The notes below the pieces were generated by a model. The model saw nothing but the letters and a program-made list of their open reading frames with translations, was not told where the DNA came from and made no database searches. A stretch of 20,000 nt of DNA from an uncultured virus (IMG/VR IMGVR_UViG_3300045256_000415) (taxonomy: Duplodnaviria > Heunggongvirae > Uroviricota > Caudoviricetes). The stretch lies in the IMG/VR virus record IMGVR_UViG_3300045256_000415, one strand, 5' to 3'. Of the stretch, positions 2,514-19,200 are shown one piece after another (position 1 is the first letter of the stretch; each line of letters opens with the position of its first letter). A program made the position numbers and the translations under genes.

Positions 2514-3119
2514 CTAGACGCTGGCGAGGATGCTCTGGACCGTCTGTTCTGAAATCCCCTGCTGCTCCATGATCTCGCCAATGCGGTCACTGTTCAGGAG
2601 GGTGGCCTGCTTCCACACACCGACGAAATGTTCGAACAACCGCATGCTGCTCATTTTGTCCAGTTCCACCGTCACGTCAGCCCAGGACGAATCGGTCAAA
2701 TTCCGACCGCCGGCCACGCCGCGGATTTCGCCGCCGGGGTAGGTGAAGAGGGCACACTTGATGTGGGAACCGCTAGAGATTCGCCACTTGAACTCAGGGA
2801 ATTTCTCGGCGTGGTTGATGTGCCGGACGAGGCCCAGGACGTACTGCTTTTCGCAGTCCACGCAGGCGGTCTTTTTCCCCTTGCAGGACTTGTGCTCATA
2901 GTTGCCAACGAGGATACGGACGTCTTTGAGGCTCCGCATCCGTTCCAGGAATTCACGGGTTTCGGAGCGGTACTTCTCGCCCCATTCGCGAGAGTCGCCG
3001 CCGTCGGGCTGGATGCCGGCGTAGAGGTTGTGGGTGGCGATGAGCACCTTTTCCGGCTTCTCGTCTACGCACTCGTTGAGGAACTTGAAGTGGTCGTCGT
3101 TGGTTAGGAGCAGTCGCAT
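2514..3119 (-). CDS. Phospholipase D-like (HxK) domain protein, possible nuclease
   Basis: SHIKCALF...GGRNLT corresponds to the HxK...GSxN motif; GGAGG lies upstream of the ATG at 3119. Confidence 0.65.
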   Translation of the reverse strand: MRLLLTNDDHFKFLNECVDEKPEKVLIATHNLYAGIQPDGGDSREWGEKYRSETREFLERMRSLKDVRILVGNYEHKSCKGKKTACVDCEKQYVLGLVRHINHAEKFPEFKWRISSGSHIKCALFTYPGGEIRGVAGGRNLTDSSWADVTVELDKMSSMRLFEHFVGVWKQATLLNSDRIGEIMEQQGISEQTVQSILASV

Positions 3120-3149
3120 GGAGCCTCCGGAATGGTACGAGGCCCTCCT

Positions 3150-3196
3150 AAAATACAGCAACGGGCGAGGGTCCCGTATCCCTCGCCCGTTGCCGC
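3150..3196 (-). terminator. Probable intrinsic terminator hairpin
   Basis: Perfect 14-bp inverted repeat GCAACGGGCGAGGG (3158-3171) / CCCTCGCCCGTTGC (3180-3193), extended by G-U pairs on the minus strand and followed by ATTTT. Confidence 0.55.
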
Positions 3197-3285
3197 CGCA
3201 ACCCCAGCGTCGTGCTGAGTGTCTCTACCGTACTTTTTAATACGTTTGCAACGTTTCGAAAGTTCGGGTGTTACTTTCCGAACCA

Positions 3286-3756
3286 CTAAACGCCGTTTTC
3301 GGCTTTCTCCGGTTTCTTAGCCAAGTGGGTCCGCTTCTTCGCCCCCTTCTTGACAACGAAGTCGTTGACGTTGCCGATTTCGTACCAGTGTTCCAAGGCG
3401 ATCCATAGCCCCTCTTCGCCCTGAAACAGACCTTTCCGCTTGAGAACGGTGAAGTTGTTGGGGATCTTGACCTCGCCCATCTTGATGACCACCGGGATCA
3501 CCAAGCACAGAACCCGCCCACAGCCCATCCGGTAGAAGATGGTAACGTAGGGCTTCTTACTAGCCCGAATCTCGTCAAACGAGATGAACAGACCAGGAAC
3601 CTCCCAATCATGGGCACTCTCGTACGTGCTGCGACAATCCTTGACGATGTAGGTAGTCCAGCCGTTGTAACCGTGGTAGAGGGCGGTGGTGGTGCCGGCG
3701 TGCTTAACATCCTTGGCGAAGTGGTCCATCAGAATTATTGCATCATCACGCTTCAT
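3286..3756 (-). CDS. Hypothetical protein
   Basis: Gene-like codon usage from MKRDDAIILM; basic C-terminus; start uncertain. Confidence 0.6.
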   Translation of the reverse strand: MKRDDAIILMDHFAKDVKHAGTTTALYHGYNGWTTYIVKDCRSTYESAHDWEVPGLFISFDEIRASKKPYVTIFYRMGCGRVLCLVIPVVIKMGEVKIPNNFTVLKRKGLFQGEEGLWIALEHWYEIGNVNDFVVKKGAKKRTHLAKKPEKAENGV

Positions 3757-3799: not shown

Positions 3800-4300
3800 T
3801 CAGCGACCGAAGATTGATTCCTGATCCTCGTTATCATCCCAGATGGAAGAACCCGGTGGATCGGGTTCAGTAGCAGGCTTGCCCTGTCCGATGCGGCCAA
3901 TCATGGTGGTGAGATTTTGGAAGGTCCGATCGAGCTTTCTGTCGATGGCCGATACCGCTCCGGCCGTCCGGTGAGCGATCTTCTCGGCGTTCTCGGACTG
4001 TTTCAGGGCGAGGTCGATTTTCTGATCGACGCTCAATGCCCCGATCTTCGCGGCTTTGGCCTGCTCCCGCATCTTCTCGACTTCCTGCCACTGTTGCACT
4101 GTCCCTATATGGTTGTTGCCGCCACCTGGGGCAGGACCATGGTAGGTGGCAGTGACTCCAGCCGGGTCATTGGGGGTGGCGGCGACTGCTTGGCTTGGTG
4201 GCAGGGAGTTGTTGAAACTGCCCGTATCGGAGCCGTTCGACTGCGGGGGTACGGTACCACTTTCAAGCACCGTATCGAGCATCTTTGTGAACAGCCCCAT
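3800..4300 (-). CDS. Hypothetical protein with low-complexity N-terminus and central coiled coil
   Basis: 166-aa ATG ORF with P/G/N-rich N-terminus and heptad-like middle region. Confidence 0.7.
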   Translation of the reverse strand: MGLFTKMLDTVLESGTVPPQSNGSDTGSFNNSLPPSQAVAATPNDPAGVTATYHGPAPGGGNNHIGTVQQWQEVEKMREQAKAAKIGALSVDQKIDLALKQSENAEKIAHRTAGAVSAIDRKLDRTFQNLTTMIGRIGQGKPATEPDPPGSSIWDDNEDQESIFGR

Positions 4301-4354
4301 AGTAGCCGCCTGTGTTGTGATTTCCTTACCTACCCTTTATCTTTGGAGGGACAG

Positions 4355-4574
4355 ATGCTTCCAGTAATTGGTAACGACAGCGAAGACATCTACATCACCG
4401 GAGACACCCACTTCGACCACGGGAACATAATTAGATAACGCGGCAGAGATCCTAGGTGAGCACCGGCCGTTCACCCTCAAGGAGGTCGTGAGCCTCCTCA
4501 AGGACAAGCCGGGTTTCGGGCTCAATCCGAACGTGCCCCTCTTCTACAAGGGGCCATCGGAACACAACCACTAA
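4355..4574 (+). pseudogene. Calcineurin-like metallophosphoesterase with most of its interior deleted
   Basis: GGAGG RBS then MLPVIGNDSEDIYITGDTHFDHGNIIR* (motif I DxH). The +1 frame from 4434 reads DNAAEILGEHRPFTLKEVVSLL...*, resembling the C-terminal GVD...RP motif of this phage family. Confidence 0.75.
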
Positions 4575-4798
4575 GCTCTAGTATTGGGCCGAGCAACGGG
4601 AACCTCCTGTTGCCCGGCGAATTGGTTAGCGATATGAATCAGACGTCGAATCAGGATGGGCTTCGCCAGATGAAGGACTTCCTGGCCTTCCATTTCTCCC
4701 ACATATCCTAGTATCTCCCCCGTCTGGGTGTCGATCAGCTTATAGACACTACTACCCAGACCGCTGATGCCGGTCGTCGGTTCCATCTTAAAACGCAT
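4571..4798 (-). CDS. Small hypothetical protein
   Basis: MRFKMEPTTGISG...; start uncertain (4798 or 4786). The longer ORF call runs into the structured region upstream of the tRNA. Confidence 0.5.
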   Translation of the reverse strand: MRFKMEPTTGISGLGSSVYKLIDTQTGEILGYVGEMEGQEVLHLAKPILIRRLIHIANQFAGQQEVPVARPNTRA

Positions 4799-4848
4799 AC
4801 TACACCGTGGGTTCCGCCTTCGGGTCGCGAATCCAGAGAACAACACAA

Positions 4849-4920
4849 CTGGCGTGTCCTCCGTGGAGGAGGGCCAGTCTTATGAGCTGGTATTGCGGGG
4901 TTCGATTCCCCGACGCCCGA
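4849..4920 (+). tRNA. tRNA-Ile(UAU), atypical, no encoded CCA
   Basis: Cloverleaf: acceptor CTGGCGT/ACGCCCG (one mismatch), D stem CCTC/GAGG, anticodon stem CCAGT/GCTGG with loop CT-TAT-GA, T arm CGGGG-TTCGATT-CCCCG, discriminator A; 72 nt. Confidence 0.75.
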
Positions 4921-4939
4921 TTTACTTTCGAACGCCAAC

Positions 4940-4968
4940 TTGACACAAACACTGGCGTGTTCTAGATT
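4940..4968 (+). promoter_or_regulatory. Sigma70-type promoter
   Basis: TTGACA (4940-4945), 17-nt spacer, TAGATT (4963-4968), upstream of the plus-strand gene run starting at 5004. Confidence 0.65.
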
Positions 4969-5003
4969 TGGATGTCCCGTCCGGATCTAACCCTGAGAAA
5001 AAT

Positions 5004-5258
5004 ATGACAGCCATCTGTGCATGGTGCAAAAAGCATCTGGGCGAGAAGGAACCGCTCGAAGTCCGAACCGAAACCCACGGCATCTGCGAGGCGTGTTTCG
5101 CCGAAATGGCGGAGCGAGTGCGACATGATGAAACACCATACTTGGCAGAAGAAACTCTTGGAGAGCCCCAAGCATGGGGAACCGGGTTCCAAGAGGAAGA
5201 AACCACAGTCCACCACGGAGGAGCGGCGAATCGAACGGAAAAGGCAACGGCGAGCTAG
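5004..5258 (+). CDS. Small zinc-binding protein (CAWC...HGICxxC)
   Basis: MTAICAWCKK...THGICEAC motif pair, common in small phage and bacterial proteins. Confidence 0.65.
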   Translation: MTAICAWCKKHLGEKEPLEVRTETHGICEACFAEMAERVRHDETPYLAEETLGEPQAWGTGFQEEETTVHHGGAANRTEKATAS

Positions 5259-5292
5259 AAAAGTAGCCCAGCAGGCCAAGAAAAAGAAGTAG
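5125..5292 (+). CDS. Small highly basic protein
   Basis: GGAG upstream of ATGATG at 5125; K/R-rich 55 aa; overlaps the previous ORF in another frame. Confidence 0.45.
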   Translation: MMKHHTWQKKLLESPKHGEPGSKRKKPQSTTEERRIERKRQRRARKVAQQAKKKK

Positions 5293-5306
5293 CGTATTTG
5301 AGCAGG

Positions 5307-5471
5307 ATGCTCAGCAACACCAAGCCAGAGGACCTAGTGGCCTGGATCATCGAGAAGGATATCAAGGTACTGAATGTGGCCGGGAACTCCGAGAAGTTTG
5401 CTCCCGGTATTGGAGAATTCGTGCGACTATTCCTACTCGAAACAATCGAGCAGCTAAATGCCAGGGCGTAA
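5307..5471 (+). pseudogene. C-terminal fragment of a SLOG / putative molybdenum-carrier family protein
   Basis: My translation: MLSNTKPEDLVAWIIEKDIKVLNVAGNSEKFAPGIGEFVRLFL...; the W....IKVLNVAG..E...PGI motif is the family C-terminus; the N-terminal SGGQTGAD motif is absent. Confidence 0.6.
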
Positions 5472-5706
5472 GCTAGTCAAAATCCGCGGCCAGAAGTTCA
5501 AGATGAAGAGTCGGCCGGGGAAGTCGTACCGCAGTTATCACCTGTCAGTGCCACCGGATATCGCCAAGAAGATCCCGGAGGCCATGCGGTTCACCGTCGA
5601 ACTCACCAACGACGGCATCCTGTTCAGGCCGCACAAGGAACCGGACCCGGTTCCACCCCCTCAACCGGCATGGTTAACCGACGCCTCCCGTCCTGCCACA
5701 GGCTGA
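5458..5706 (+). CDS. AbrB/SpoVT-like DNA-binding protein
   Basis: SYHLSVPPDIAKKI...FTVELTNDGILFRP fits the swapped-hairpin pattern. Confidence 0.55.
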   Translation: MPGRKLVKIRGQKFKMKSRPGKSYRSYHLSVPPDIAKKIPEAMRFTVELTNDGILFRPHKEPDPVPPPQPAWLTDASRPATG

Positions 5707-5757
5707 CAGCAAAACTAGGCTGGGTGGGTAAAACCTCACACAACCAGCCAGGTAGCT

Positions 5758-6288
5758 ATGGAAACTAAGAATTGCATGGACTGCGGTGAGCCTAAGCCAT
5801 TACAGAATTTCGAGAGCATCGGGTGGCGTAAGGGCGTGCACCGCCGCAGGGCCGCGTGCCGTTCTTGTATGAAAGAACGACGAGCGAAAGAGGTCAAGTG
5901 CAGCCAGTGTGGGCGACCGAATGACTCCGACGGGAAGACTTGTTCGCATTGTCGGACCCGCCACAAAGAGCGGGCCTTGGCCGATCGACAAGCCGTATTC
6001 CAGCATTATGGACACCAATGCTCGTACTGTGGGTTGGCTGACGAGATGTTTCTCACAGTCGATCATGTTCACAACGACGGAGCCACCCACCGACGGGAGA
6101 TCGGCAGGCAGAGTGGATCGCGGTTATGCCGATGGTTAAAAGCACGCCGCTTTCCGCCAGGATTCCAAACATTGTGCTTCAACTGCAACTGTGCTAAAGC
6201 GATCTACGGCGAAGAGGTTGTGAAAGAGAAATGGAAACTATTACGTTTACCAAAGTCAAGCTCCAATGGGGATTCTTCTCCAACATGA
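5758..6288 (+). CDS. Free-standing HNH endonuclease with N-terminal Cys-rich zinc motifs
   Basis: Several CxxC pairs; CSYCG...LTVDHVHNDG...FQTLCFNCN is the HNH core. Confidence 0.8.
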   Translation: METKNCMDCGEPKPLQNFESIGWRKGVHRRRAACRSCMKERRAKEVKCSQCGRPNDSDGKTCSHCRTRHKERALADRQAVFQHYGHQCSYCGLADEMFLTVDHVHNDGATHRREIGRQSGSRLCRWLKARRFPPGFQTLCFNCNCAKAIYGEEVVKEKWKLLRLPKSSSNGDSSPT

Positions 6289-8317: not shown

Positions 8318-9070
8318 CTACCCCACCGCCTTCGCCACGAACATCACATCCCGGTCCAGGTCCTCGATCGGCCGATAGGCGTGACCCGGCCGTCCGAATC
8401 GGAACAACTGGAATCCCGTCATCTCCAACAGGAGCTTGACCTCATTCGGGAAGAAATACCGCTGGGTGTGCCACTCCTCCCGCGTCTCCAGTTTCCCCTC
8501 AGTCGGCACCCACCACTTGTAATGGCAGGTGACGGTGCTTTTCTCGGCACACAACTTCGGGGTCATGCTCCGAAGGATGTGGGTGCCGTTGTAAGAAATC
8601 TCGCGGAGCCGCGGAGCCGGCTTCTCCAGAAGAATAGCCGGGCCGTACCAGACGTCAAACACGAACATACCACCCGGCCGGAGGTGGCTGCGGACGTTGC
8701 GGAGGGTGGCGATAACCTCCTCGTTGGCGTGCTGGTAGCCCAGGACCGCCGACATCATCGCCACCACATCGAACTGCTGGTCGAGGTTGAACGTCCGGGC
8801 GTTGCCCTGTTGAAACTTGACCTCTGGCACCTTCTGGCGGGCGATCGCCAGCATCTCATCAGAAAGGTCCACGCCGACGACGTTGAAGTCCTTCTTGAAG
8901 TATTGACTGTGGTTGCCAGTACCGCACCCCAGGTCCAGCAGGTCGGCCTTCCCGGACTTCTGCACAAGCTCAGCCGCAAGCTCCGAGACAGCACGGGCCT
9001 CGGCCAAGAACTGCTGGTCCTTGTATAGAGCGTCATAGATGGCTGCGTAGTCCTTGCCGAACAGATTCAT
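8318..9070 (-). CDS. Class I SAM-dependent methyltransferase
   Basis: LLDLGCGTG, VGVDLSDEML, FDVV, HLRPGGMFVFDVW motifs; ATGA overlap with the upstream gene. Confidence 0.92.
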   Translation of the reverse strand: MNLFGKDYAAIYDALYKDQQFLAEARAVSELAAELVQKSGKADLLDLGCGTGNHSQYFKKDFNVVGVDLSDEMLAIARQKVPEVKFQQGNARTFNLDQQFDVVAMMSAVLGYQHANEEVIATLRNVRSHLRPGGMFVFDVWYGPAILLEKPAPRLREISYNGTHILRSMTPKLCAEKSTVTCHYKWWVPTEGKLETREEWHTQRYFFPNEVKLLLEMTGFQLFRFGRPGHAYRPIEDLDRDVMFVAKAVG

Positions 9071-10155
9071 AGGATCTCCAGGAGTGTGGTTGCGACCGTT
9101 CGAATCTGCTCTTCAGTGAGAGCTACGCCGGATGGCAGATACAAGCCATTCCGGGACAACCGATCCGTTACCGGGAAGTTGTCACCATCGACCAGGATAT
9201 CGGGTTGCTCGTGGAGCCCGATGAAAAATGGCCGTGTCTCGATCCCCTTCTCACGGAGGGCCTTGATGACCGGCTTGGCGGGCCTGTCCAGGACAATACC
9301 GTACATCCAGTAGACGTTGGTCGCCCATTCTCGTTCAACCGGCCGCTGAATCGACGGGTGGTCCAGTAGCTGATGATACAGCTTGGCTATCTTCCGCTTA
9401 GCCTTGATATTCTGATCCAGCCGCTTGATCTGAGCCACACCAACCGCCGCTTGCAGATCGGTCATGCGGTAGTTGTGACCGAGAGCGGTATGTCGGAATC
9501 GGTCATCACCCTTTCCGAAGCATAGGTTGCGGAAAGAACGGAGATGGTCAGCCCAATAATCGGCATCGGTTAGGATCATCCCACCTTCGCCTGTGGTCAC
9601 CAACTTATTGGAGTAGAAGCTGAAGCAGGACATGTGCCCGGCACTACCGGCCTTCCCGCGGCCATCCCATCGTTGGTATTCGCCGCCGTGAGCTTGGGCC
9701 GCGTCCTCAATGACGTACAACCCTTCGCTCTCGGCATACTGCATCAGACTTTCCATATCCACCGGGTGCCCGTACATGTGCACCGGCATGATGGCTCTGG
9801 TCTTGTTAGTTCGGACCTGGGAGAGTTGCTCCAGATCCATACACCAAGTATCTGGGTCCACGTCCACGAGAACGGGCTGGAGTTTGTTGCGAATGGCGGC
9901 TAGGGCACAAGAGATGATGGTGAACGAGGGCATAATGATCTCGCTGCCCGGCGGTAGCTCCAGGGCAGCGACGGCGAGTTCGAGGGCGACGGTGCCATTG
10001 GCGACGGCGACTCCGTACCGCTTGCCGCAGTAGTCGGCCCATTGCTGCTCGAATTCCTGAACGTAACGACCGGCTGCGATCCAATTGTCCTCTACGCATT
10101 TGCGGAGGTTCTGCCATTCCTCATCGCCTATGAGGGGTTCGCATACCGGAATCAT
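9067..10155 (-). CDS. DegT/DnrJ/EryC1/StrS PLP-dependent sugar aminotransferase (perosamine synthetase-like)
   Basis: NGTVALELA, PVHMYGHP, VIEDAAQAHG, SFYSNKLVTTGEGGM (PLP lysine), GHNYRMTDLQAAVG, GLYLPSG. Confidence 0.95.
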   Translation of the reverse strand: MIPVCEPLIGDEEWQNLRKCVEDNWIAAGRYVQEFEQQWADYCGKRYGVAVANGTVALELAVAALELPPGSEIIMPSFTIISCALAAIRNKLQPVLVDVDPDTWCMDLEQLSQVRTNKTRAIMPVHMYGHPVDMESLMQYAESEGLYVIEDAAQAHGGEYQRWDGRGKAGSAGHMSCFSFYSNKLVTTGEGGMILTDADYWADHLRSFRNLCFGKGDDRFRHTALGHNYRMTDLQAAVGVAQIKRLDQNIKAKRKIAKLYHQLLDHPSIQRPVEREWATNVYWMYGIVLDRPAKPVIKALREKGIETRPFFIGLHEQPDILVDGDNFPVTDRLSRNGLYLPSGVALTEEQIRTVATTLLEIL

Positions 10156-10550
10156 CAGAACCGCTCCTTTTCAGCCACACCGGAGTAGGGGCCTTGCTTC
10201 ACTTCAAGCATTACGGTATCTTCTTCCATGCGGAAACCGTGGCCACCGGCAACAATGATGATGAGGTCGCCTTCCTTAAGTTCCCGACTGGCGATGAGTG
10301 TCTTGTCATCGTCGTAGAAGTCCACGTAGCACTTCCCTTTAAGAATGAGAAGGACTTCTGTGGTGCCGGTTAGTTCACGCTTGACAGGGTTGTGGAAGTG
10401 CCTGGGGACTTCACCGCCAGCTGGGTAGACGATATAGCCTACCTGCTGGCCGACCTCATCAGAAGTAATGAACGTAGTCTTGTTGGGAAGCGGGGCCTTA
10501 GGCACAATATAGGCCAGGGTCCGACACTTGTAGTCCACTTGCTGGTACAC
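10155..10550 (-). CDS. Cupin-fold protein of sugar-nucleotide clusters
   Basis: H-x-H...E...GGHGF...EVKQGPY cupin motifs; TGATG coupling to the aminotransferase. Confidence 0.8.
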   Translation of the reverse strand: MYQQVDYKCRTLAYIVPKAPLPNKTTFITSDEVGQQVGYIVYPAGGEVPRHFHNPVKRELTGTTEVLLILKGKCYVDFYDDDKTLIASRELKEGDLIIIVAGGHGFRMEEDTVMLEVKQGPYSGVAEKERF

Positions 10551-10551
10551 G

Positions 10552-11256
10552 TTATCTCTCGTGTGATGGTGGGATATGCTGGCCCTCTCGCGGGTGGTAG
10601 ATGGCCAGAAGCGGGTCCACCCAGATTTGAAAGCCTAGTTCCTTGATATTCTGGCAGAGGCTGCGAACCTCTTCGTTGCCACAACGAGCCCCCTTCGCCA
10701 GAACTTCGTATTTCATGAAGGCACATCCCACCCCATCCACCTCGAACAGTTGGTTGTTCTTGTAGCAGCGATGGTAAGGAGAGCGATTGATGAAATTGAT
10801 ACCGTCTTTGTGGTAAGCCCACGAATCCCGGAAAAAGACGCTTTTCTCGAAGTAGAGCATCGGCGAGATGACATGCTTGTCCCGAAGGATCATTTTCGAG
10901 ATCACATCCGGACCCACTGTGATGTCAGAATCTAAAATCCAGGTGTAGTGGGCCTTCTCCATGACGGCGATATCGAGTGCCCGGTTCCAGAGTTGAGCAA
11001 GAGCTTGGAGCCGGCCAGGTTCGGCAAAGCTGCCGATTTTTGGGGTGCCTTGGTCGATCTTCTCGACGATGGTTCGGAAGCCGTTGACCTTTTTCAGTTG
11101 CTCGTAGGTGTCATCCTTACTGTCGCCCTCTATACAAATGTGCAAAACCTGCTTCCTGTCCAGTTGCCAGCGCGCCCTTTCGATAAAGGTACGGCGGACA
11201 TCTGCTGCGTTGTCCCGAAACAGGCTACAGATAGCGACTTTATTCATGATGACCAT
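10552..11256 (-). CDS. GT-A fold glycosyltransferase
   Basis: EGDSKDDT, LAQLWNRAL, WILDSD (DxD), G+GC, IWVDP...YH motifs. Confidence 0.8.
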   Translation of the reverse strand: MVIMNKVAICSLFRDNAADVRRTFIERARWQLDRKQVLHICIEGDSKDDTYEQLKKVNGFRTIVEKIDQGTPKIGSFAEPGRLQALAQLWNRALDIAVMEKAHYTWILDSDITVGPDVISKMILRDKHVISPMLYFEKSVFFRDSWAYHKDGINFINRSPYHRCYKNNQLFEVDGVGCAFMKYEVLAKGARCGNEEVRSLCQNIKELGFQIWVDPLLAIYHPREGQHIPPSHER

Positions 11257-17340: not shown

Positions 17341-17907
17341 TTACCATTGAGCTTGACATAGAGTTTTCCGGAAGCCGACGGGACTGGGGTGAGTGGGTGA
17401 AACGTGAGCTGACGGAATGCTCGCCTTCAAATTTTCGCGTGTTACGGGACTGTCGCAGTGGGGGCAGTACGTTCCATAAGGCTGGCGGTGCTTGCAGTAC
17501 AAGGATAGGACAGTCACACCGGCAGGGTGGTATACGGCGACTGGGCGGAAGAAGACGTCGCGGTAGTTTGCCCGCCACACGAGCTTATAGCCGCTCAGGA
17601 GCATTGCGGCCGTCGCCTCGTCCGCGGAGAGGTAGCCCGTCTCTTCCTCGATGATGTGCTTGAGCTCGTAGGCCGAACACTTGCCGCCGATATCGTAACC
17701 CCAGAGCCAGACCATTGCTTTCGCCACCGCCGAGAGTCGGACTGGTCGGTCGGCGTCCACCTTCCATGCGACCAGCCGCTTGATTCTGGCGTCGAGCAGC
17801 AGGGCGATCTTGGCTAGCTTAAGGATGTGCTCGCTGCAGCTGGGGTGTTGGGCGATGTTCCAGATGTGGTCGAGCTTGTTGAGGTCGTCCAGGGTGGCTG
17901 GTGTCAT
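17341..17907 (-). CDS. Hypothetical phage protein with SxYxLKH motif
   Basis: SAYELKHIIEEETGYLS....AAMLLSGY resembles the SSYGLKH...Y..N...IAA...GF motif of phage hypotheticals; GAGGA RBS. Confidence 0.65.
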   Translation of the reverse strand: MTPATLDDLNKLDHIWNIAQHPSCSEHILKLAKIALLLDARIKRLVAWKVDADRPVRLSAVAKAMVWLWGYDIGGKCSAYELKHIIEEETGYLSADEATAAMLLSGYKLVWRANYRDVFFRPVAVYHPAGVTVLSLYCKHRQPYGTYCPHCDSPVTRENLKASIPSAHVSPTHPSPVGFRKTLCQAQW

Positions 17908-17934
17908 CGGGTCCTCAGAGCGATAGAATCACGA

Positions 17935-18407
17935 ATCGCCGTCCTGGCCCGTATGGTTAAAACGCTCCGAGTAAGTCCCTGGGCCGCACCCACTTCAACG
18001 CTGCACCCCATGGGTGACCAAACCCAGGGGGTGCAGCCGGAGCCAGAGAACCGATGCACCAAAGTGCTTTGGAGGCGTAGCCAGGAACTACGCCGTGATC
18101 TGGTTACAACACTTTGGGGATGTTTTCTCGTACAGTAGCAGTGTTCCGTCAGTTGTTTATCGTCCACCACTCGCGGCCCTTCGCTTTTCAGACTAGGCAC
18201 CGTCCCGTCCGGGGACTCAATACCATCCGCGAGACCCAAGACCCCACCCATCGGAAAATAGGCTGCGACGTAGCATCGCAGGGGACTTAGGAACCAGGGG
18301 TGGATCGGCGTCGGAGCCGGGTAGTACACTAAACTCCCTTGGCGACCGTCCCGACGTTGCGGCTCGCAGGTTTTAGATTACACGACCGCCTCCTGTTAGA
18401 ACGTCAG
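17935..18407 (-). ncRNA. Candidate large structured non-coding RNA, family unassigned
   Basis: At least nine complementary stem pairs, nested and long-range, with non-Watson-Crick positions reading as G-U on the minus strand; no credible ORF. Ends are approximate. Confidence 0.7.
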
Positions 18408-18520
18408 TGCCGGGAGGGGGAATCGAACCCCCATGCTTTTTGGCGGCAGGGTTTCTTATTGGTCCCGTTCCGGCGAGTAGGCTGGCGATCACCGATCCAG
18501 CGGAGTCGTTTTATCTCGGC
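18408..18520 (-). tRNA. tRNA-like element: 3' half resembles a class II (Leu-like) tRNA, 5' half non-canonical
   Basis: GGGGG-TTCGATT-CCCCC T arm, TCCCGGC-A acceptor strand and a long variable-arm-like segment. The acceptor can pair with GCCGAGA (18520-18514, one mismatch), but there is no normal D arm or anticodon stem. Confidence 0.5.
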
Positions 18521-18542
18521 AGCAGGTTGAGCGTTTTTCATC

Positions 18543-18584
18543 GAACCCTCCACCGCATATCTTCTTAAATACGGTGGAGGGTTC
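18543..18584 (-). other. Perfect 13-bp hairpin at the HNH stop codon
   Basis: GAACCCTCCACCG / CGGTGGAGGGTTC; extends inward via a G-U pair on the minus strand; no U-tract follows on either strand. Confidence 0.7.
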
Positions 18585-19200
18585 AATGTTGCTTCTGGAG
18601 TTCTACCTGCCAGTACATCTCGCTGATGATGGCGTCAATGTCCGGAAGGACCTTCCCCCATACCGGCTTGATGACTCGCGTACGGAACATCGGGCTCCAC
18701 CTGGGCTTCACCGGCTTCCTGATGAGGACCATGCCGACCTGCTTCGGAGTGCGACCGCCCTTACGGACGTTGCAATCGACGCAGGCGATCACGCAATTTT
18801 CCCAGGAGCTAGGACCACCCTGGCACTGCGGAATCACGTGGTCCACCGTGCAGTTGCTCGAACTCATCCGCTTGCCGCAGTATTGGCAAGTGTTGTTGTC
18901 GCGAGCGAACAGGTTACGACGGTTGAACATCAGGCTACGGGAGTGGACCTTCTCGTAATAGTTCAAAACGATGATATCGGGGACCTTGAACTTACCCCTG
19001 ACAGTCGTGACGAATTCCTCGCCATCGTCAACCTGGAGTTCACTCCACTTCGCCCAGGAATACGTCTGAAAGTCGTGCGGGTCGAGAATCTTGGCGTTCT
19101 CGGAGCAGACCTTGGTGATGGCGTCACGCACCGGCTCGACGTCGATAGCGGTCCAGTTCTTGTTGAGAACCAAAGTCGGCTGATCGAGTACAGCAGGCAT
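18583..19200 (-). CDS. HNH endonuclease (McrA-like, 'TLVLNxxW' subfamily)
   Basis: PTLVLNKNW...VPDIIVL..Y...FNRRNLFARDNNTCQYCG...TVDHVIP...GG.SSWENCVIAC..CN.RKGGRTP..VGM.L...P..P. Confidence 0.92.
   Translation of the reverse strand: MPAVLDQPTLVLNKNWTAIDVEPVRDAITKVCSENAKILDPHDFQTYSWAKWSELQVDDGEEFVTTVRGKFKVPDIIVLNYYEKVHSRSLMFNRRNLFARDNNTCQYCGKRMSSSNCTVDHVIPQCQGGPSSWENCVIACVDCNVRKGGRTPKQVGMVLIRKPVKPRWSPMFRTRVIKPVWGKVLPDIDAIISEMYWQVELQKQH

Follow-up and report, generated by a model that had tools for sequence, protein, structure and literature searches.

Large RNAs that have so far escaped explanation, such as GOLLD and ROOL, occur in phages near islands of transfer RNA (tRNA) genes, as described in one account (PMC12286853). 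Two-piece transfer-messenger RNAs (tmRNAs) are carried by phages according to a second paper (PMC9004378), and a third (PMC11915505) describes the order of parts in permuted tmRNA genes, in which the T-arm and 3' acceptor strand are followed by a variable segment and then by the 5' acceptor strand. Here we examine a stretch of 20,000 nucleotides (nt) from an uncultured virus of the Caudoviricetes (IMG/VR record IMGVR_UViG_3300045256_000415), referred to as a whole as the window, and describe within it a conserved non-coding element of ~330 nt that runs on the minus strand from position 18434 to position 18105 and begins with the 3' part of a leucine tRNA (tRNA-Leu). A further group relevant to this element is that of tRNA-like processing handles, which we take to include the stable RNAs of the phage T4 tRNA cluster, the mascRNA of MALAT1 and the permuted tRNA genes of red algae. 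The original prediction for this locus had proposed a single ornate RNA of ~470 nt at 17935-18407, as a candidate for a new class akin to GOLLD or ROOL, with a long-range closure and a pseudoknot. A real, constrained, non-coding element is present on the strand of the flanking genes, as had been proposed, and it is shifted and shorter relative to those coordinates.

The element was delimited with short contigs of four other sequencing runs (X5, X6, X13 and X15), of which X13 has RNA on record and X6 is RNA by guess only. Contigs of this type cannot give the strand, ends or level of an RNA and are weak evidence of expression, and the stretches that they leave without cover in the four runs prove nothing. 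Small shares of the stretch in 12 further runs are not counted in the evidence here. A core of ~257 nt is present in contigs of all four runs at 93-98% identity per record, and thus in the run recorded as RNA as well as the run taken to be RNA. The contigs span 18105-18270 and 18288-18434 with 2 to 11 differences per 100-166 nt outside a hypervariable spacer that separates the tRNA-like head from the core (Table 1). The ~100 bases that flank this spacer (18290-18361 and 18405-18434) hold no listed difference in X5 or X15, and the clustering of differences within the spacer is highly significant in both (Fisher p = 1.6e-9 for X15 and 3.8e-8 for X5). Three runs lose similarity at 18105 and continue from there in two different ways, and X15 loses it at 18434; no contig from any of the four runs falls on 17836-18103. 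The core is the sole piece on the stretch obtained from X13, and in X6 the core contig has a depth of 18.4 versus 3.1 for the contig of the neighboring HNH endonuclease gene.

This HNH gene provides a reference for how coding sequence has diverged at the locus. It is also spanned by contigs in two runs (the genes of X5 and X6 are 93-98% identical to that of the window), and 11 of its 12 listed differences are at third codon positions, so the neighborhood has existed long enough to diverge at sites that selection leaves free. The five listed core substitutions, by comparison, favor the third position in no frame. An open reading frame (ORF) of 141 amino acids (aa) that overlaps the element has no homologue, with only one of the five listed substitutions at its third codon position, and an ORF of 58 aa on the plus strand had just two matches, both to tandem-repeat products, and hence no credible homologue. 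The contrast between spacer and flanks, the codon pattern and the lack of homologues for these ORFs together indicate that the conserved blocks are constrained as nucleic acid and not as protein.

The head of the element is identical in sequence to the 3' ends of bacterial tRNA-Leu, and 28 nt of it, from T-stem to discriminator, are 100% identical to a tRNA-Leu(CAA) of one planctomycete genome. The CCA end is not encoded after the discriminator, A18408. A 25-mer from this piece has six exact matches in IMG/VR, two of them inside called tRNA-Leu genes and the other four in shorter pieces resembling the 3' part of tRNA-Leu, where ARAGORN calls no tRNA. When 18105-18440 was compared by BLAST with 401 sampled Planctomycetota genomes, the significant matches (best E from 4.7e-7 to ~1e-3) were all to the tRNA piece, the best of them within tRNA-Leu genes, and the remainder of the query gave only chance-level matches of 19-45 nt with E of 0.001 or weaker. 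Across the runs the tRNA piece has no listed difference at 18405-18434 in X15 or at 18405-18430 in X5. At 18408-18520 the Rfam tRNA model scores 20.8 bits, below its cut-off of 29, and ARAGORN at default settings calls no tRNA; the X15 sequence behind 18434 is unlike that of the window, and the decayed tRNA-Leu-like 5' part is not common to X15.

Table 1. Features of the locus, listed from the upstream HNH gene to the downstream ORF on the minus strand (feature; position in the window; strand; basis or remark).
HNH endonuclease gene, 205 aa, McrA-like	18583..19200	-	Pfam HNH 1.6e-13; phrog_16726 2.1e-28
Hairpin with 14-base-pair (bp) stem, overlapping the HNH stop codon	18541..18586	-	sequence
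Decayed tRNA-Leu-like 5' part (GCCGAGAUA..., ~25 extra bases)	18437..18520	-	alignment with six tRNA-Leu genes
T-arm GGGGG UUCGAUU CCCCC, 3' acceptor strand UCCCGGC and discriminator A	18408..18436	-	identical to bacterial tRNA-Leu 3' ends
Hypervariable spacer, 43 nt	18362..18404	-	X15: 15 substitutions and 1 deletion; X5: 13 substitutions and four 1-nt insertions
Conserved core	18105..18361	-	contig cover; holds helix 18227-18233/18170-18176 around hairpin 18195-18224
GUCGGGA, complement of the 3' acceptor strand 18409-18415	18349..18355	-	7 pairs, one U-G; 53 nt downstream
Interrupted 12-bp hairpin (CGG/CCG, GCC/GGC, GGGAGU/ACU-CCC) with 7-nt loop UUAGUGU	18312..18348	-	in every fold of window, X15 and X5
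Terminator-like hairpin, then CCUAUUUUCC	18263..18281	-	terminator-like site on minus strand
Helix CCAAAGUGUU/AGCACUUUGG (18108-18117/18059-18068)	18059..18117	-	tip in window carries a 37-nt insert with hairpin 18074-18094
Tail	17935..18104	-	hairpin 18000-18037; 3' strands of long-range closure (17964-17979) and pseudoknot (17983-17991)
Downstream orphan ORF, 188 aa	17341..17907	-	no Pfam or PHROG family

Several local folds are found within the conserved sequence. Neither the 3' acceptor strand nor its downstream complement changes in X5 or X15, and the variable spacer lies between them; the two strands form a stem that is the unconstrained minimum free energy (MFE) structure of the rebuilt X15 variant, with all 7 of 7 pairs, and that lies 2.0 kcal/mol above the MFE in X5. 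We hypothesize from these predicted folds that the head is a circularly permuted tRNA-like module, in which a 12-bp minihelix of T-arm and acceptor stem closes the spacer. The hairpin at 18312-18348 holds no listed difference in X5 or X15. Further along the core, an A-rich segment (18118-18169) is open, being mostly unpaired in the centroid fold. At the end of the core the 5' arm CCAAAGUGUU is the same in X5 and X6, where it leads into a different loop of 7 nt and then into a 3' arm complementary to it, as read by eye from the contig ends. The X15 sequence just upstream of the hairpin at 18263-18281 differs from that of the window, at a loose contig end before 18290. The 9-mer CGGGACGGU occurs twice in the core on the minus strand, at 18345-18353 and 18199-18207, 146 nt apart, and each copy precedes GCC by 0-1 bases; one such repeat in 700 nt is about what chance would give.

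The best explanation that we can offer, plausible but held tentatively, is that the element is a stable phage RNA linked to a minihelix, tRNA-like and permuted, at which tRNA-processing enzymes cut. The head would be what is left of a tRNA-Leu gene, with the T-arm and 3' acceptor strand alone still intact, and the latter would pair with GUCGGGA to form a permuted module that closes a freely evolving spacer. After this head would come the unchanged 12-bp hairpin and then the core with its open A-rich segment. Because no promoter-like site was found ahead of the element on the minus strand, it would be transcribed together with the HNH gene or just after it. RNase P would then cut 5' of G18355 and the tRNA 3'-end enzymes after A18408, so that the core RNA would be freed from the HNH message and would stay base-paired to the tRNA-like piece. 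The open, unchanged segment would be the likely working surface of the product, for pairing or for protein binding.

A number of results weigh against this proposal. In the window itself a competing hairpin beats the proposed acceptor stem by 2.5 kcal/mol, and a complement to the acceptor strand within 100 nt has a chance of ~0.08 by our own arithmetic, which is not the output of a tool; for this reason the permuted minihelix is put forward as a hypothesis rather than a finding. The core, read from 18361 to 18105, folds no better than shuffled sequence (MFE z +0.08, with 93 of 200 shuffles as good). Upstream of the T-arm the window and X15 are unlike in sequence, and in neither does this region pair significantly with the core. 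No compensatory change backs any helix, no full homologue having been obtained. One unchanged 20-mer had no match in IMG/VR, in the JGI metagenomes or in 185,579 species genomes, and a second had none in IMG/VR. The core contig of X6 has 6 differences in 109 nt versus 5 in 262 for its HNH contig, so that the core is not better conserved there, with just one of the six lying away from the contig end. Finally, one or two differences per contig of X5 and X15 are unlisted and may lie in the flanks or near the contig ends.

Searches for known families and for relatives were negative within their scope. Rfam gave no match at the gathering score in the whole window, and permissive filters at E<=10 around the element returned only noise and the sub-threshold tRNA hit. 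At both settings there was no covariance-model match to GOLLD, ROOL, HEARO, RNase P RNA or group I and II introns; the absence of Rfam matches, tmRNA included, agrees with the novelty that the original prediction had claimed, and the resemblance to RNase P RNA that it had suggested finds no support there. No match was obtained with blastn of 17880-18600 against 50,697 phage records, and nhmmer with the element against 812 kb of sequence (160 loci with HNH homologues) gave one match with an E of 1.7, which is noise. IMG/VR held no relative of the neighboring proteins (the 188-aa ORF, a DHH protein, a 204-aa ORF and the HNH protein). Nothing that describes the element came up in literature searches on phage two-piece tmRNA and on HNH endonucleases in tRNA arrays, neither of which was aimed at the element itself. 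Two candidate identities were rejected: a group I intron in a tRNA gene, for which the order of parts is unfit and Rfam has no match, and a guide RNA of the IscB/HEARO type, since the HNH protein has HNH domains only. The spacers of X5 and X15 are diverged homologues rather than guides, because most of their changes are common to both.

The same conserved block could instead act as DNA, an alternative that we consider unlikely. The tRNA-Leu 3' fragment would in that case be the core of a phage attachment site (attP), or the end of an integrated element, serving T-loop integration into a host tRNA-Leu gene, with the conserved block as a recombination arm. Like the attP sites of tRNA-integrating phages and islands, the locus has an exact 3' end of a host tRNA in a phage genome, flanked by conserved non-coding DNA, and identity blocks such as its 28-nt match are typical of T-loop-type tRNA integration sites. 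The four shorter pieces among the six IMG/VR matches are comparable fragments in viral contigs, the similarity begins at the T-stem in X15 and stops sharply at 18105 with different continuations, as the ends of elements do, and the core lacks a thermodynamic fold signal. However, no integrase family was found nearby, among the 26 window ORFs scanned, and the window holds no second copy of the conserved core. An integrated form was not found either: only the tRNA part was matched in the Planctomycetota genomes, and the unchanged 20-mer is absent from the species genomes given above. The conservation is continuous over 70-100 nt, whereas we would expect an arm composed of separate short protein sites to be patchy, and the direct repeats amount to two 9-mers, close to chance. 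The presence of the core in the runs with RNA on record and by guess also argues against a DNA site, as does the missing CCA, which some hosts encode.

We consider it quite unlikely that the original prediction was right about the unit itself, one large RNA of ~470 nt closed by 18311-18317/17964-17970 and 18282-18289/17972-17979 and knotted by a further pairing. The individual helices do exist. All of the pairings listed were confirmed at their positions, including CUGACGUU/AACGUCGG (one G-U), GCUCCGA/UCGGAGC, UAAGUCCC/GGGACUUA, CCGAUG/CAUCGG, CUCGCGG/CCGCGAG and CCAAAGUGUU/AGCACUUUGG (one G-U), the hairpins at 18263-18281, 18074-18094, 18000-18037 and 18195-18224, and both strands of the pseudoknot, GCCGAUCCACCC and GGGUGCGGC. 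The bias of G-U pairs to the minus strand also held, with three G-U in GGUAUU/GGUGCC and an MFE of -192.3 on the minus strand versus -173.4 on the plus strand. In support of a large fold, the stacked closure (perfect helices of 7 bp and 8 bp, one base apart on the 3' side) is mildly unusual, with two perfect helices of at least 7 bp side by side in only 5 of 150 shuffles, although this test was picked after the helices had been seen. Two C-to-U changes at the X15 end, read by eye in and just before the UAAGUCCC strand, would leave G-U pairs, and the tRNA-island context is like that of GOLLD and ROOL.

Long-range helices are not in excess of chance, however. Counted as windows of at least 7 bp with at most one G-U, they number 13 versus 17.3 +/- 5.6 in 60 shuffles, and 83% of the shuffles have as many. 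Over the whole 473 nt the MFE z is -2.11 on the minus strand, a level that 2 of 100 shuffles reach, and -1.25 on the plus strand, and the core by itself gives no such signal; the whole-region signal comes from the last 170 nt, the tail read from 18104 to 17935, which has an MFE z of -2.97. This tail, which supplies the strands for closure, the partner for the pseudoknot and the most stable hairpins, has zero depth in all four runs, three of which diverge at 18105. The proposed extent also fails at its other end, as the conserved unit starts upstream of it, at the T-arm (18434). The outer helix 18400-18407/18351-18358 belongs to the MFE structure in the window only, with 0 of 8 pairs in the MFE structures of the X15 and X5 variants; two of its eight positions lose complementarity in X15, and its 5' strand lies in the hypervariable spacer. 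The 3' partner of 18249-18254 is not seen in X5 or X6 within 30 letters beyond 18105, and one closing helix has a 5' strand that runs into the unchanged local hairpin at 18312-18348. The 470-nt RNA is not supported as a unit and its fold should not be carried forward as drawn.

There is little probability, in our judgment, that the locus has no dedicated function at all, such that a decaying tRNA-Leu gene is followed by the ordinary intergenic leader of a downstream operon and the similarity among runs reflects recent transfer with a mobile HNH gene. The decay of the tRNA 5' part, the absence of a fold signal in the core and the equally high identity of the X5 and X6 HNH genes are in keeping with such an origin. 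Recent transfer would nevertheless leave the spacer like its flanks, and the spacer has 13-15 changes plus indels in 43 nt versus none listed in ~100 nt. In addition, no closely similar HNH contig accompanies the core in X15 and X13.

It is likewise very unlikely that the element is a circularly permuted two-piece analogue of tmRNA, in which the acceptor piece would end at A18408, the coding piece would start at G18355 and a short frame would occupy the A-rich segment. The arrangement of parts is that of permuted tmRNA genes, with a T-arm and a 7-bp acceptor stem formed by an upstream 3' strand (18409-18415) and a downstream 5' strand (18349-18355), and the A-rich segment is open and unchanged. 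A frame through ...RNTATVRENIPKVL has its stop, UAA, at 18106-18104, directly behind the 5' arm of the hairpin 18108-18117, and X5 and X6 have UAG in their 7-nt loop; the position of this stop resembles what we take to be that of the stop codon in the helix-5 loop of Escherichia coli tmRNA. The acceptor is of leucine type, however, with C-G rather than G3-U70 at positions 3:70 and a wobble at 2:71. There was no match to RF04321, RF01849-51 or RF00023 at E<=10, with the limit that matches scoring below the overlapping tRNA hit (13-21 bits) are masked by clan competition. ARAGORN was silent at its default and at 95% and 90% of threshold and called the element only at 85%; the relaxed call was rejected as evidence, as the 85% setting gave 193 calls in 812 kb of unrelated DNA and the 80% setting gave 18 in the window. 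No helix joins the region upstream of the T-arm to the coding piece in the window or in X15, the frames end in ...NIPKVL and ...NQITA before the stop, neither of which resembles a known tag, X13 has UAU where the stop would be, and the sole substitution in the candidate resume codon changes GCU to ACU. Highly improbable is the variant in which a phage-borne, permuted two-piece RNA derives its tRNA-like domain from tRNA-Leu rather than tRNA-Ala, is cut by RNase P and the 3'-end enzymes, is charged by leucyl-tRNA synthetase, and enters stalled ribosomes to add a short phage-specified peptide that would end at a stop codon at the tip of the hairpin 18108-18117.

We read the window as a section of a large phage genome. 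Its genes are mostly on the minus strand and include those for a clamp-loader-type ATPase, a DHH phosphoesterase, a NADAR protein, a sugar-modification cluster and two HNH-type nucleases; a contig that carries one of the window proteins is 133,465 bases long, and the runs that contain the whole stretch are labeled as hot-spring and microbial-mat metagenomes. The element occupies a 675-nt gap on the minus strand between the HNH endonuclease gene (19200 to 18583) and the orphan ORF (17907 to 17341). The HNH protein has 1166 homologues at E<=1e-10, mostly planctomycete, and genes for such homologues sit within arrays of dozens of tRNA genes in several Planctomycetota genomes (loci L120, L089, L099 and L102, with the HNH gene at ~3001-3590 of each); this nuclease appears to be a standard component of tRNA islands in that phylum. 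About 40 tRNA hits surround the homologue of L120 within 4.5 kb. The tRNA-Leu match and the planctomycete-rich HNH family in tRNA arrays indicate that the phage host is probably a planctomycete and that the locus resembles what remains of a tRNA island. This context fits the known pattern of large phage RNAs near tRNA islands, given the HNH family inside tRNA arrays.

Other observations concern the neighboring sequence. The nearest relative of the HNH gene among the 160 loci (66% identity) also precedes hairpins and then an odd tRNA-like sequence (L009, positions 480-625) with the acceptor GUCCUAU/AUAGGAC, a T-arm and an Asp-like GUC loop, which Rfam does not call at the gathering score; the layout agrees with that of the window and the sequence does not. 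The hairpin that overlaps the HNH stop codon keeps both stem arms in X6 with its loop replaced (at a loose contig end before 18571), and it is not a plain terminator as no U-tract follows it on the minus strand. The 188-aa ORF downstream of the element is its own sole match among 5.8 billion proteins and had no tblastn match in phage records. Elsewhere, default ARAGORN calls a single tRNA in the window, tRNA-Ile(UAU) at 4849-4920 on the plus strand, in surroundings (~4300-5750) that hold short ORFs only. Genes for an S-adenosylmethionine (SAM) methyltransferase, a DegT-type aminotransferase, a cupin and a glycosyltransferase-like protein lie at 8318-11256 on the minus strand and adjoin a gene for a 464-aa protein with a phosphoribosyltransferase end; this run may be a phage module for sugar or nucleotide modification. 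On the opposite strand, 5758-6288 (plus) holds a second nuclease-like ORF with a zinc ribbon and a PHROG assignment to HNH endonuclease / endonuclease VII. A phrog_624 gene split around an intron was considered and rejected; the gene is whole, as the Cr30 homologue has 219 aa versus 190 aa here.

In comparison with known systems, the element shares with the two-piece tmRNA genes (RF04321, RF01849-RF01851) the order of its parts, the processing by tRNA enzymes that would be expected, and an open segment ahead of a hairpin that has a stop codon at its tip, and both occur in phages near tRNA genes and HNH genes. It differs from them in its leucine-type acceptor, without G3-U70, in lacking a covariance-model match and a recognizable tag, in the silence of default ARAGORN, and in that its pieces would be linked by the acceptor stem only. 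If the tmRNA-like reading were nonetheless true, the element would be the first non-alanine analogue of trans-translation. GOLLD and ROOL resemble it in being phage-borne, non-coding, situated beside tRNA-related genes, conserved at the nucleotide level and not known in function. Unlike them, the element is small (~330 nt conserved), has no Rfam match, has a fold that covariation does not back and has a core of ordinary folding energy. To the RNAs of phage tRNA islands it would thus add a smaller, strongly constrained member with an unusual head, the remnant of a tRNA-Leu. The resemblance to tRNA-like processing handles lies in the expectation that RNase P and the 3'-end enzymes would be drawn to a tRNA-shaped module embedded in a longer transcript, by which the ends of the neighboring RNA would be set. 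The module here would differ from those handles as a permuted minihelix derived from tRNA-Leu and lacking a D-arm, whose processing we infer. Should it be processed in this manner, a decaying phage tRNA gene would be reusable as a processing handle.

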